Below are positions 6,821 through 30,053 of a stretch of DNA of 30,823 nucleotides, one piece after another. Below the pieces are notes generated by a model. It was not told where the DNA came from. It worked only from the letters and a program-made list of their open reading frames with translations, and searched no databases. This DNA is from Pseudomonadota bacterium. Lineage in GTDB: Bacteria; UBA10199; 2-02-FULL-44-16; JBDRGF01. Made by a program: the position numbers and the translations under genes. How positions within the stretch are numbered: the stretch's first letter is position 1; every line of letters starts with the position of its first letter. The DNA lies in the NCBI GenBank assembly GCA_043818055.1, contig JBDRGF010000062.1:1-30823 (forward strand). Reading direction: 5' to 3'.

Positions 6821-8464
6821 TTGAGAAAGAACGGGATTGCAGATCCAATTTTCTGGAATGGGTCGGTCTTTGACCGATCTACTGTTCGAAGTGCTTGTGA
6901 TATCTATAGCCATAAATTGGATGAACGCATCAAGCTTGAAGGTCATGCAAGATCGTTATCTCGTGTAGATCAAGTTATTAATGGCAGCAAAAGTGAGTTT
7001 AAAAGTCAGATTGCTACAAAAAGCGATAATTACCTAATTCGCGACTGTTATAAATTTCTTTCAGAAATTAGAAGATTCTCTAGACCTATGGATTCTATTT
7101 TGTGGAAAAATCCTCTAAATATCAAAGGAAGAGATCGAATAGAAATGATATTGAAAGAGGCTGTTTTAAAAAAATCTCAACAATTTATGTCGGTTTATCC
7201 AAGAGTGCTGGGGGAATGCAGCGATGATAGTGCTCTTTCAATATTGGAGGAGTGTTTCAATAATCCCAATACAATGGTCTCAGCAATAGATGGTGTTAGA
7301 AATATTGCCTCTCCTGTGGCAATTGAATCTTTGCGTAAGTTATTAAAACTTTCGAATCCGATGCATTTGACAAGAGTTGCTCAAAGTTTAAGCCTTTTGG
7401 GAGATAGCAAAACGGTTCAGATTTATAAAGAGATTATAGACCGCTGTCTAATTGACGATCATTTCTCAAATATATTTTCGGCAGTTTATTCAGCTAAAAT
7501 AGTTTGTGCGGCAAATGATGAATCCGGATTTAATTTTTTGAAAAAGTTAGCACATTCAATCAATGAAAATGTTCGGGCAATTGCCCTTGCTGAAATGTGC
7601 GAATTAGAAGATCCCAGATTTTTGCCTGTAGCAAATAATTTACTTAATGATGAAAATTCTTTAGTTCGTGCAATGGCAGTTCAATATCTTTCGAGATTTG
7701 ATGATGATTGGTTGTCAAAGCTTGAAAAGATGCTTAAGGATAAATCTCCTGATGTTCGTGAGGCGGCAGTGGAGGGTTTTCAATACAGAAAAGAGGCTAA
7801 CTCGGTTTACTGTTTATCTGGAATTATTAATGATAAAAGTTATAATGTCCGAATCGCAGCAATTCATGCCCTTGCAGCAATAGCTGATGAATCAGCTATT
7901 GAAATAATCTATCAGGCTATGAAAGATAAAGAAATGAGTGTTCGATATATGGCTAAGCGAACCCTTGAATTGCTCGGCGTTGCAGATTCGCGTACAATTT
8001 TGATGAATGAAATCAGATGTCAGGGTCCGATTATTATTTCGCCATGTGAAGCAATAAAAAGTCTGGGTGAGAATGCAGCAAGCGATTGTATTCCAGAATT
8101 CTTCAGATTTCTTAAAGAACATGATGGGTTAGATTCTTTTCTTGTCAAGCCTGAGGCGATCAAATCGATAGCGAAATTAGGCAACGCTGATTTAATACCA
8201 TCAATTGAAGTATATCTCTATGATTCATGTGAAGAGGTTACTAAGGCTGCAATTCATGGCCTCATTATGCTGGGGGCTGAAGAGCTATTTCAAGACTATT
8301 TGCACAGCAATGTTTTTTTAAAGTCGCTCATAGGAGCGATAGGTCTTGTTGGAACAGGACTTGTGAGGAGTGTTTGTTATTTTTTGGAACCTAGTGAATT
8401 TTCAAATATACAAAAAAAATGGGTGGATGAGTCTGAGGAAATAATTTTTAATGAAAATTACTGA
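6821..8464 (+). CDS. HEAT-repeat protein of the local leader/cap family
   Basis: PBS-lyase-type HEAT repeats (LNDENSLVRAMAV, LKDKSPDVREAAV, INDKSYNVRIAAI). GGAGG at 6811-6815 favours TTG 6821 as start, which aligns the leader Trp with paralogs. Ends WVDESEEIIFNENY. Confidence 0.85.
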   Translation: MRKNGIADPIFWNGSVFDRSTVRSACDIYSHKLDERIKLEGHARSLSRVDQVINGSKSEFKSQIATKSDNYLIRDCYKFLSEIRRFSRPMDSILWKNPLNIKGRDRIEMILKEAVLKKSQQFMSVYPRVLGECSDDSALSILEECFNNPNTMVSAIDGVRNIASPVAIESLRKLLKLSNPMHLTRVAQSLSLLGDSKTVQIYKEIIDRCLIDDHFSNIFSAVYSAKIVCAANDESGFNFLKKLAHSINENVRAIALAEMCELEDPRFLPVANNLLNDENSLVRAMAVQYLSRFDDDWLSKLEKMLKDKSPDVREAAVEGFQYRKEANSVYCLSGIINDKSYNVRIAAIHALAAIADESAIEIIYQAMKDKEMSVRYMAKRTLELLGVADSRTILMNEIRCQGPIIISPCEAIKSLGENAASDCIPEFFRFLKEHDGLDSFLVKPEAIKSIAKLGNADLIPSIEVYLYDSCEEVTKAAIHGLIMLGAEELFQDYLHSNVFLKSLIGAIGLVGTGLVRSVCYFLEPSEFSNIQKKWVDESEEIIFNENY

Positions 8465-9503
8465 TTGGATGCGTCAGATAATTTATCCCATTACCTTGGA
8501 TGCGAATGATCTTAAGCAGACATCTTTTATAGGATCCCTTCCAAAAACCGATGCTCTGCTCATCGGTCCGACAGAATCAGTGGGAAATTCACTCTTTCGG
8601 TTCACAAAAAAATCAAATGAAGAATGGGTTAAAACTGCGAGCCCTGTTTTTAAAAGGCACAATGCAAAGATATCAATCGATAGTGAAGATGGTTTGATAA
8701 CTGTCGAAAACGATGATTACACAAATTCCAGCAATTTTATATTAAATGAAAGTTTTTTAAAACTGAAAGAGCTCAATAGGGTTGAGTCTTTGGACCTGAC
8801 CAATGTATGCATAGGAGACGAGGAAGTGAAGGCTTTAGCAGGATGTCCATATCTCACAGGCTTGAAAAAACTAAATTTGTTTAGAAATGAGATAAGCAAT
8901 AAAGGGGTTTTAGAATTATCCAAGAGCCCGCTCTTAGCGCGTTTAGTAAGTTTGCGATTGGATTGGAATAACATAGGAAATTTAGGTGCGTCTGCGTTGG
9001 CAGCTACCTCGACTCTTTCAGAATTGAGTTTGGGTTGTAATAGTATAGGTAATAAGGGCGCGATTTCCCTGGCATTTAGCCCTTATTTTAGATGTTTAAG
9101 AGAGTTAGATTTGTGGTACAACAGGATTGCTGATAAAGGAATAATAGCTTTAACAAAAAGTCCACACCTGGAACGGTTGACCGATCTGAACTTGGATCAA
9201 AACAGGATGGGAGATAAAGGCGAAAAGGCATATCGTCGCTGGGAGATTCTTCGCGATGTGCGTTTTGGATGTGAAGGTTCAACAGAAAATCTGGTCGAAT
9301 ATCTTAAAGAGGATTGCAATTTTTTAGAAAAGGTTCGTTCAATTAGGGCACAATATCGATCAAACGTTCAAATTGCCAGGGTTTTTCATATGCTATCATC
9401 ATCAGGATTGTTAACTACAAAAGAAAAGGGAATCATTTTAGACATTCTATATTCAAAACCTTTGTCCTGGAGAGCGGAGACGGAGGAGGGGCTATTCATA
9501 TAG
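8451..9503 (+). CDS. Leucine-rich repeat protein (RI/GALA-like) with helical C-terminal domain
   Basis: About 6 LRRs (LKKLNLFRNEISNKG, LRELDLWYNRIADKG). Overlaps the upstream HEAT gene by 14 nt. Ends WRAETEEGLFI. Confidence 0.88.
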   Translation: MKITDWMRQIIYPITLDANDLKQTSFIGSLPKTDALLIGPTESVGNSLFRFTKKSNEEWVKTASPVFKRHNAKISIDSEDGLITVENDDYTNSSNFILNESFLKLKELNRVESLDLTNVCIGDEEVKALAGCPYLTGLKKLNLFRNEISNKGVLELSKSPLLARLVSLRLDWNNIGNLGASALAATSTLSELSLGCNSIGNKGAISLAFSPYFRCLRELDLWYNRIADKGIIALTKSPHLERLTDLNLDQNRMGDKGEKAYRRWEILRDVRFGCEGSTENLVEYLKEDCNFLEKVRSIRAQYRSNVQIARVFHMLSSSGLLTTKEKGIILDILYSKPLSWRAETEEGLFI

Positions 9504-9561
9504 TATGTATAAAAGAAAATTACATTTTAAAAATGCATTATAAGCCCTCTGGCGTTTGAAA

Positions 9562-27865: not shown

Positions 27866-27869
27866 TATT

Positions 27870-30053
27870 ATGAGCACATATCGAGCATCCTGGTTGGGAA
27901 GAGGTGTTAATAGATATCTTTTGCAACGCGCACGAAGCTTGGAAAGGGAATCAAGAAGCATTGTACAGACAAATGAATTTGTGAAGCGTTTCGATTATCC
28001 TCCTCTGACCGACAGCTTCGATAGATATCTTATTGATGGGAGCGTTGATAATGGTGTCAACACATATTCATTCATCTCTAGCATCAGAATGTTGGTTCAA
28101 GGAAAATATTGCAGGAAAATGGCGCCATCTCGTTGGGGGAATTGGCTTGTAAATCTGCTCGTGAGGGATGGCTTTTTGTGCCTCTTTGACAAGGGTGAAT
28201 GGCAAAACAAAATAGCTCTTCCAGAGGTGAAGGATATTTTACTGACCGGCGGTGTCGGTACGATGATCGGTCATTTTGGATTGAAAATTGCTTTTGAATT
28301 GTTGGATGAGGCTAGAGATGGTTCTTCTACTATTTATGAAATGATCATCGATGAGTATGATCATTTTCCAGCTGACGATCCGGTTTTTTTGGAGCACTTT
28401 GAAGGATTAATAAATAATTCCCGGTATAATACACGAGCATTTGCCGCCAAAAAGATGGGGGCTTTGAAACATCCATCTTTTTATGAATCTCTCAAACGCA
28501 AAGCATTGTCATCAGATGATGATCTGGTTGTGAGGGAGGCAATCCTTGCATTTGGGGAGATGAATGCCCCCGATGTATGTAATATCCTCACCGATCGCTT
28601 CATAGGTTCAAAAATTGGTGAGATCTTTCCAGGATATACCTCCTTAGCCTATCTGATGCAGTGGGATAATATTAAAAAGAGTGCCCTTGAGGCATTGAAG
28701 TCAGCGGCTAATCAAGATGCCAAGTTGCCATTTGAAAATGTATTTCAAAACCCGAGGGATTATTTCTATCTTGGCAGGGGGGTAAAACCCGAATGGGCAA
28801 GCGGTGCAGCTCGCATCCTTTGGCAGATTGGAGATGAGCGCTCACACAATATACTCATCAACCTTTTAAGATATAACCGAGACCCTAAGTTGCGCGAGGC
28901 TATTGTAGAGGGCATAGGAGATTATGGAGATGAAAAGGCCAGAGAGGTTTTGGAAAGATATGGGGTGGAGGATGATGACAAAAATGTGCGACTGAGTACG
29001 GTAAGGTGTCTTCGTTCAATTGGAAGCGATCGATCAGTACCCATTTTCGAGAGACTTCTTTCGGATGATAGTGACGGTGTTCGAGATAATGCTGCTCAAG
29101 CCCTCGGTGATCTTAAAAGCAGTGGGTCTATAAACTTGCTCATTAAACTTTAAAATGATGATCCGAAATTCTGGGTTCGATGGAGTGCTGCTGAAAGCCT
29201 TGGGTATTTAGGATCAAAGGAGGCTCTTTTTGCTCTAATAAAGGCGTTAAAAGAGGAAAAAGTGAGTGATGTACGATCTCAAATAGTAAGAAGCCTTGGC
29301 CTCATTGGCGATCCAATTACGATAGATCTGCTTATTAAAACCCTTATGGAGGATCCAGATGAGAATGTGCGCGCAAATGCTGCAAGAGTACTTTTATTTG
29401 ATGACTCCAGAGTGCGATCGGCATTGCGTGCCTCTTGGAAAGAGGATAGTTCTAATAATCTGAAAGAAGACTTGGCGATGACACTTGCAAAGCTTGGTCA
29501 CATCGATGATTTGAAATTTTTAGCGAATATCATGTTAAATGATAAAGATGACTACATCAGGCGAAAAATTGCAGTCCTACTCAGTCGCGTCCAGGGCGAA
29601 TCTTTAAAAGAATCATTTGAAATGGCTTTGGATGATGTTGATGATAGTGCAAAATATCATGCTTTGAGAGTTTTAGGGAATATCGGGACAGAGAGCTCTC
29701 TTTCTAAAATTGCGCCTCTTTTGAGATCTGAAAATATGTTTACTAGAATCTATGCTTTAGGCAGTTATATAAAATTGGGAGGTGAAGGTTGGAAAGAAAT
29801 TGTTATGGATGGTTTGAGAGGAGATGCCAAAAATGAAATCACCGAAGCTTTGAGTTTTTTGGGTGCTAAAGAGTTTATTTATAACAAGCTTCTTACAAGT
29901 CAGGATAAGAGAATACAGGGCTTTGGAGTTCAGGTATTAGTTGAAATGTATAGGATCGATCAGGTATTAAATATTTTAGAACGCATTGTTCGTGAAAAGA
30001 TAGTTATGAAAGATTGGGGGTTGGAGGGCGAAGAGGCGCTTTTATGGGATTGA
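27870..30053 (+). pseudogene. HEAT-repeat protein of the leader/cap family with in-frame TAA at 29151-29153
   Basis: ORFs 27834..29153 and 29262..30053 are in the same frame. The repeat continues across the stop: LLIKL*NDDPKFWVRWSAAESLGYLG. Ends WGLEGEEALLWD. Confidence 0.82.

Follow-up and report, generated by a model that had tools for sequence, protein, structure and literature searches.

Why should proteins of unrelated architecture, encoded side by side, end in the same short acidic peptide? The question is raised by contig JBDRGF010000062.1, which was analysed over its entire length of 30,823 nucleotides (here called the window; contig C62). It belongs to the metagenome-assembled genome GCA_043818055.1 (G000; 2.93 Mb in 166 contigs, completeness estimate 93.6%) of an uncultured groundwater bacterium, whose phylum is represented in our collection by 93 genomes. 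Eight genes of the window, mostly HEAT-repeat and leucine-rich-repeat (LRR) genes, and a gene remnant on contig C37 carry the tail W-x-x-E-x-E-[ED]-x-[LI]-[FYL], 0-5 residues before the stop codon; variant and degenerate copies are included in this count. An earlier note, made from the sequence letters, had proposed a new export or docking signal. Here we report that the tail is a real and statistically solid motif which is nearly confined to one lineage. As to its function, our tentative preference is a docking peptide that would tie the carriers to a common partner inside the cell. Mis-binning of the contig was considered and rejected: its tetranucleotide correlation with the rest of the bin was 0.978, compared with a median of 0.976 for 60 contigs.

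The genome was scanned with the pattern W..E.E[ED].[LIVM][FYLW] in the last 16 residues of 7624 stop-to-stop open reading frames (ORFs) of at least 80 residues. The full motif was present at six of these ends, five in the window and one on C37. Shuffled tails (300 rounds) yielded a mean of 0.013 full-motif matches and a maximum of 1, and only two internal matches occurred in 1,318,248 residues. When the Trp was omitted, the core was matched at eight termini (six in the window, one on C37 and one in low-complexity sequence on C92), with a shuffle mean of 1.45. The enrichment over shuffled termini for which the earlier note had asked is thus obvious. HEAT and LRR genes are also located on C17, C119, C71, C88, C126 and C16; none of these matched any of the tail patterns. 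The motif fits no known family; we make no claim on whether it is already in print.

The eight C-terminal strings quoted in the earlier note were all recovered at the C-terminal ends of ORFs. Its coordinates correspond roughly to gene starts (9562 is the low end of its gene) and not to the positions of the motif, and its ORFs at 27602 and 29262 turned out to be parts of larger, broken genes. The nine carriers are the following:

6809..8464, plus strand: HEAT1, intact HEAT-repeat carrier; tail WVDESEEIIF at 8420-8449, then NENY, with the stop four codons on
8451..9503, plus strand: LRR1, intact LRR_6 carrier of 350 residues; tail WRAETEEGLF at 9468-9497, then I
9562..11412, minus strand: HEAT2, intact HEAT_PBS carrier of 616 residues; tail WILESEERLY at 9580-9609, then SSSSD
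11489..13147, plus strand: LRR2, intact LRR_6 carrier of 552 residues; tail SQREMEEILF at 13112-13141, then Q; Ser replaces Trp
22897..24105, plus strand: HEAT-group paralogue of 402 residues without Pfam match; degenerate tail CGAETEDGRG at 24061-24090, then TVKL; Trp, Leu and Phe have been lost
24872..26254, plus strand: paralogue of 455 residues without Pfam match; tail WSLET-TAG-DGLYE at 26222-26251, interrupted by TAG at 26237-26239
26272..27865, plus strand: HEAT3, carrier split by a frameshift (ORFs 26272-27600 and 27602-27865); tail WRDEMEDKLF at 27827-27856, then EE
27834..30053, plus strand: HEAT4, carrier with an in-frame TAA at 29151-29153; tail WGLEGEEALL at 30015-30044, then WD
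Contig C37: ninth copy, a HEAT remnant of 165 residues with the terminus PTWQEETEELLF; it overlaps a large surface-protein gene on the opposite strand

Are the Glu codons under selection as protein, or do they serve as a Shine-Dalgarno sequence for the next gene? The latter fits the HEAT1/LRR1 junction only. There, the start of LRR1 overlaps the end of HEAT1 by 14 nucleotides, and a GAGGAA in the HEAT1 tail is located 10 nucleotides before the LRR1 start codon; no other carrier junction is of this kind. The earlier note had dismissed the Shine-Dalgarno explanation because three carriers end at a convergent gene. These arrangements were found as described, HEAT2 being convergent with LRR1, and the dismissal holds with the exception of the HEAT1 tail. 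Further, synonymous sites differ between the tail copies (GAG/GAA, TTT/TTC, CTA/TTG). This indicated a constraint on the peptide and not on a DNA or RNA element.

Next comes the question whether a peptide or an entire domain is shared. Two profiles, one built from the C-terminal 90 residues of the seven HEAT-group copies and the other from the C-terminal domain of LRR1, were aligned with hhalign. Only 23 columns aligned, ILD..s..p.k.W..E.EE.LF (P 2.6e-4, probability 42%). Because the likeness is limited to these columns, it is a peptide of about 20-24 residues that is shared and not a domain. This agrees with the earlier claim that one peptide is attached to two structurally unrelated scaffolds. 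Within the HEAT group the helix preceding the tail (V..V..ILE) is conserved along with it.

By sequence, the carriers are ordinary members of the HEAT_2/HEAT_PBS (PF13646, PF03130) and the RNI-type LRR_6 (PF13516) families. HEAT_2/HEAT_PBS was matched at 6809-8464, 9562-11412, 26272-27600, 27834-29153 and 29262-30053, LRR_6 at 8451-9503 and 11489-13147. Scores were above cut-off, with 63.7-304 bits for HEAT_2 in five carriers and 69.7 and 72.4 bits for LRR_6 in the two LRR carriers. The HEAT and LRR assignments of the earlier note thus stand. No Pfam match was obtained for the 402- and 455-residue proteins (22897 and 24872). The latter align with the HEAT group over their full length and have in common with it an N-terminal W..G...D...L.RA motif and the C-terminal region. 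Searches of the carriers with NCBIfam and PADLOC returned nothing specific. As previously claimed, the carriers have no Sec signal: a typical signal peptide was not detected in any of them, and a hydrophobic N-terminus is present only when the longest possible starts of the ORFs at 6761 (the longest version of HEAT1) and 26272 are used.

Is the tail conserved outside this genome? A word-indexed search of 5.8 billion clusters with the 455-residue protein returned itself and a paralogue only, and a word-indexed protein search with the LRR1 C-terminus returned only the query. An exhaustive phmmer search of 1.84 billion representatives with LRR1 gave 19327 matches at E <= 0.001. Among the best 150 of these, a single protein, P0129 (266 residues, from one assembly contig of 29,612 bases), aligned beyond the repeats, and among the 149 non-self proteins listed the tail was present in P0129 only. 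The 48% identity between P0129 and LRR1 extends over the full length, beginning with residue 1 (MKIT..RQI.YP, FKRHNAKISIDSED), and P0129 terminates in LSWIEESEDLLY (SWIEESEDLLY). In most of the LRR relatives that were used for an alignment, the consensus stops soon after the last repeat, without the 80-residue helical domain and the tail. Species-representative genomes scanned with LRR1 and P0129 yielded 31 pattern matches, none of which was confirmed, and a metagenome scan yielded only a contig of 2820 bases which is 100% identical to the window, i.e. the same organism. A search of the ESM Atlas with the LRR1 C-terminus produced only generic TPR/HEAT-like helical matches below the reliability bar.

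Within the phylum, the profile of the LRR C-terminal domain matched one of 93 genomes, G000 itself. The back-translated motif occurred once each in 19 of the 92 other genomes, compared with 10 for a reversed control pattern. At none of these 19 loci (6 and 13 were examined) was a long ORF found to end 5 codons or less behind the match.

The comparison of LRR1 and P0129 disclosed another conserved stretch. The N-terminus of LRR1 (window 8451-8490), MKITDWMRQIIYP, is conserved in residues 1-13 of P0129, MKITELTRQITYP, although residues 1-48 of LRR1 are modelled as disordered. Going by the two sequences, the protein may possess a further short motif, at the end opposite to the tail.

How is the tail positioned with respect to the scaffolds? 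In the AlphaFold2 model of LRR1 (20-row alignment, mean predicted local distance difference test score (pLDDT) 81.6) the repeats and the helical C-terminal domain (residues 255-334) were predicted with a pLDDT of 86-95 and residues 1-48 with less than 50. The tail formed a helix (residues 340-349) with block means of 73 and 55. The model of HEAT2 (9 paralogue rows, mean pLDDT 69.5) was confident in the repeats (75-95) and dropped after residue 560; here the tail consisted of two short helices (602-606 and 608-612) with a pLDDT of 33-35. Thus, in both models the tail is the least confident ordered element, and a packed cap is seen in neither. The prediction is a short helix on a flexible tether, without packing on the repeat core. 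The net charge of the tails ranges from -2 to -4. An amphipathic helix was considered as the identity of the tail and was rejected, as its hydrophobic moment was not above that of shuffles in the eight tails.

What might such a tail do? We consider it quite possible, although somewhat short of probable, that it is a portable docking peptide which ties unrelated HEAT and LRR scaffolds to one common partner inside the cell. Two hydrophobic anchors, Trp and Leu-Phe, would enter a pocket or groove of the partner, the basic rim of which would pair with the Glu residues. Selected at the protein level, a short linear motif would have moved between two scaffolds and provided both with the same interaction; that there is one common partner is our inference. 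The option of one partner protein, already contained in the earlier note, is backed by the restriction of the likeness to 23 columns, by the retention of the tail in the 48%-identical orthologue and by models in which the tail does not pack as a cap.

The closest working analogy probably is the acidic C-terminal tip of SSB, the single-stranded DNA-binding protein. This tip (DDDIPF) is a flexible tail which binds many partners via its terminal Phe carboxylate. Both are short acidic peptides with a hydrophobic or aromatic end at a flexible C-terminus, and both would be used as a common handle. They differ in that SSB is one protein with many partners, whereas here many proteins have one tail. 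In addition, the Trp anchor and the 0-5 residues after the motif distinguish our tail from the SSB tip, to which it has no sequence relation. With short C-terminal handles on unrelated proteins, cells direct a multitude of clients to a single machine or hub. If the docking peptide targets an internal hub, the carriers would illustrate, on a small scale, the transfer of a motif between scaffolds of the HEAT and LRR types. In any case, the tail offers an experimental entry point into an otherwise orphan family of an uncultured phylum.

Several points weigh against a docking peptide. A partner was not identified. Conservation outside the genome rests on a single orthologue, P0129. Weak or fading selection would fit the state of the nine carriers, with three broken genes, one truncated remnant and two losses of the tail. 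The low pLDDT of the tail can also stem from the shallow alignments (20 and 9 rows). The helical hydrophobic moment was no higher than in shuffles for eight out of eight tails, so docking as an amphipathic helix is not indicated. Finally, the 0-5 residues between motif and stop do not allow a reading in which the free carboxylate is recognized, as it is in ligands of the SSB-tip, PDZ and HbYX types. The alpha/alpha-toroid protein encoded at 231-1358 was picked as a candidate partner from its neighbourhood alone. A complex prediction of this protein (37-row alignment) with the C-terminal domain and tail of LRR1 was run without controls; its score of 0.00 counts neither way.

Alternatively, the tail could act within its own protein, capping the last repeat or latching onto the protein's own binding surface as an autoinhibitory element. 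Solenoid proteins usually require terminal caps, both models place the tail helix directly after the last helix of the scaffold, and in the HEAT group the preceding V..V..ILE helix has been conserved together with the tail. Yet the confidence of the tail was the lowest in both models (55 in LRR1; 33-35 in HEAT2) next to confident cores, the same peptide is found on two unrelated folds with differing surfaces, and the invariant residues are Glu, which are unlikely to pack into a core. We regard an intramolecular role as unlikely. The earlier note had set two properties, taken together, against its own reading: confinement to the locus and packing as an ordinary structural cap. The first was observed, the motif being confined to the window and the one remnant; the second is not shown by the models.

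Could the tail be an export or sorting tag that is read by a secretion machine or a chaperone, the carriers being a set of secreted or injected proteins? The earlier note had inferred an effector or cargo set tagged for one secretion machine or one partner protein and had cited the Dot/Icm effectors of Legionella. Support for effectors of a Dot/Icm-like system, or of another machine that reads C-terminal signals, was not obtained. Searches of the genome for VirB4 (PF03135), VirD4/TraG (PF02534), TssC (PF05943), phage sheath (PF04984) and the shell protein of bacterial microcompartments (PF00936) each gave 0 matches. For HlyD of type I secretion systems (TIGR01843) the best score was 27.8 bits at a cut-off of 208.65; the ABC component and TolC were not searched. 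One weak match to PF12696 (TraG-D_C) was traced to a soluble HerA/DUF87/TrwB-like ATPase without a VirB4 partner and was rejected as a type IV component. Three secretins were located in clusters for type II secretion, a PilMN-type pilus and a Tad pilus, none beside type III genes. Nor did we see anything that indicates the host-associated or predatory lifestyle that had been suggested.

The sole candidate machine found was a flagellin-less type III-like apparatus. Its cluster on contig C90 (1-14714) codes for a TPR protein of 154 residues (1350-1814), a YscJ/FliF-family protein of 325 residues (SctJ-like), a sigma factor, a weak FliG match, FliH/SctL, an ATPase with a T3SS_ATPase_C domain, YscO-like, FliK-like and FliM-like proteins, FliN, FliO, FliP, FliQ and FliR. 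FlhA is encoded separately, amid housekeeping genes (C159:85012-87000). Neither flagellin nor rod or hook proteins were found in the genome; genes for needle and translocon were not searched. FliP was detected in 93 of 93 phylum genomes and flagellin above cut-off in 11 of 93, each of which belongs to those in which FliP was matched a second time. The flagellin-less type III-like apparatus thus appears to be a trait of the phylum and looks like a non-flagellar system. No paper on non-flagellar type III systems in candidate phyla was retrieved from the literature.

Several observations are compatible with an export tag read by this apparatus. The carriers are devoid of Sec signals and consist of eukaryote-like LRR_6 and HEAT scaffolds, LRR1 begins with 48 residues that are modelled as disordered, the island is lineage-specific and holds broken copies, and the cluster on C90 with FlhA on C159 is present in a genome without flagellin, rod or hook. 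More speaks against it. The machine and the tail do not co-occur: FliP is present in all 93 phylum genomes, the LRR tail domain in one. The 19 DNA-pattern matches in the 92 other genomes (10 with the control pattern) did not end a single long ORF. The motif is present on nine genes of two families and not proteome-wide; VirB4, VirD4, TssC, sheath and HlyD-type components were not found in the genome; the three secretins belong to clusters other than that of the type III genes; and type III secretion signals are N-terminal. On balance, we doubt that the tail is an export tag.

A special version of this proposal considers the tail a new kind of C-terminal address which directs repeat scaffolds to an export or packaging machine, most likely via a chaperone of the type III-like apparatus, with the carriers as a young effector set that turns over fast. 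A precedent exists in flagellar export. The chaperones FliS, FlgN and FliT bind C-terminal helices of their type III substrates (the pairs FliC-FliS, FlgK/L-FlgN and FliD-FliT), and this probably is the closest analogy on the export side: in both cases a C-terminal helical segment would be met by a dedicated partner that delivers to the type III gate. On the other hand, the chaperone-bound segments of the flagellum are longer, coiled-coil-forming regions of axial proteins, and no carrier is flagellin-like; the flagellum-like machine is phylum-wide and the tail is not. We rate such an address tag as distinctly improbable. If a partner in the type III-like apparatus did exist, the tail would mark the first substrates of that system and a C-terminal mode of recognition.

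The tail is also loosely reminiscent of the E block of Legionella Dot/Icm substrates, a likeness which would be in line with export. As described by Huang et al. (2011; PMC3096851), the E block is loosely defined by its richness in Glu (EExxE, ExE; 3-6 acidic residues in 6-10), typically starts 11-18 residues from the end and is present on about half of roughly 200 unrelated substrates; the signal of SidM is helical. Measured against this description, E block and tail are both Glu-rich, lie in the C-terminal 25 residues of proteins that lack a Sec signal and have hydrophobic residues near the end. In contrast to the E block as described there, the tail has a fixed register, in which Trp precedes the first Glu by three residues and Leu-Phe follows, and its first Glu is located 7-12 residues from the end (P0129 included). 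Further, it is restricted to nine genes of two families in a genome in which no type IV machine was found. On these grounds we do not count the tail among the Dot/Icm E-block signals.

Has the tail any present function at all? In a decaying family it might have persisted by common descent or because adjacent paralogues recombined at their 3' ends. Of the nine carriers, four are intact with tail (HEAT1, LRR1, HEAT2, LRR2), three are broken or truncated with the tail still readable (HEAT3, HEAT4 and the C37 remnant), and in two the tail is cut or degenerate (24872 and 22897). The three broken carriers have a TAG at 26237 (455-residue protein), a frameshift near 27590-27601 (HEAT3) and a TAA at 29151 (HEAT4). 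The TAA interrupts a HEAT repeat; 27834-30053 is therefore one gene. In ORFs of 300 codons or more, each of the three stop codons serves as terminator (TAA 570, TGA 445, TAG 233), so that an alternative genetic code was rejected. Thus, the in-frame TAG and TAA and the frameshift are lesions.

Assembly errors as the cause of the broken genes were rejected where coverage exists, since contigs assembled from public runs show no difference from the window. Two of them contain the TAA at 29151, one from an RNA library (29037-29387), the other from the DNA of a further study (29141-29319). For the TAG (25994-26271) and the frameshift region (27423-27860) matching contigs came from the best DNA holder only, which possibly is the source sample. 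Contigs from the RNA library cover parts of both gene clusters, which is compatible with transcription and no proof of it.

With three carriers broken, one a remnant and two tails lost or degenerate, with lesions that appear in independent data sets and with an orphan family, loss of function has its arguments. Nevertheless, conservation at the protein level accompanied by synonymous change, the attachment of the tail to two unrelated scaffolds and its retention in a 48%-identical orthologue of another organism are hard to reconcile with a mere leftover, and we give this explanation little chance. The carrier family itself, orphan, local and with several copies broken, looks young and appears to be turning over fast.

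Last, a C-terminal degron that marks the family for a protease or adaptor, and thus for a short, regulated life, would suit a motif near the terminus with a hydrophobic end and flexible in the models, but is highly improbable because known bacterial C-terminal degrons (ssrA-type, substrates of Tsp/Prc) are non-polar and not Glu-rich, and the variable spacing of 0-5 residues argues against recognition of the terminus.

The two clusters of tail genes are flanked by four copies of an alpha/alpha-toroid domain (231-1358; 4448-6694, a tandem on the minus strand; 30132-30572) with weak Prenyltrans and squalene-cyclase matches. Within the genome the toroid paralogues are restricted to the window, and within the phylum to one of 93 genomes. 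Most of 59 metagenomic toroid homologues have signal peptides and some have dockerins; the copies in the window have neither. In the 3' portion of the tandem toroid gene, behind position 4537, a contig from the RNA library has an additional T, which, at a depth below 5, is a variant or else an error. The window further encodes an ATPase (1461-2609) and an orphan protein of 234 residues (24135-24839).

Between the clusters, a split HipA-like module is located at 13346-14879 on the minus strand. It consists of a HipA_C kinase of 313 residues followed by a 201-residue fusion of Couple_hipA with an Xre-type helix-turn-helix domain, and in PADLOC the two genes match PDC-M03A/B, a candidate defence pair. 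The plus strand encodes, at 16887-22850, an RHS/YD-repeat protein whose N-terminus resembles that of a lipoprotein (MRAKYSS...SMASC); its ORF overlaps the end of a cellulose-synthase-like gene of glycosyltransferase family 2 (15286-17007). About 920 residues extend beyond the RHS-associated core, which ends with DPWGL, and terminate in CBM30/CIA30-like matches. This region is far larger than the usual C-terminal toxin domains of RHS proteins.

Elsewhere in the genome, on contig C127 (910-7378), the genes for the subunits of ATP-citrate lyase, for isocitrate dehydrogenase and for aconitase lie together beside the PilMN-secretin cluster. This gene content hints at a reductive tricarboxylic acid cycle.

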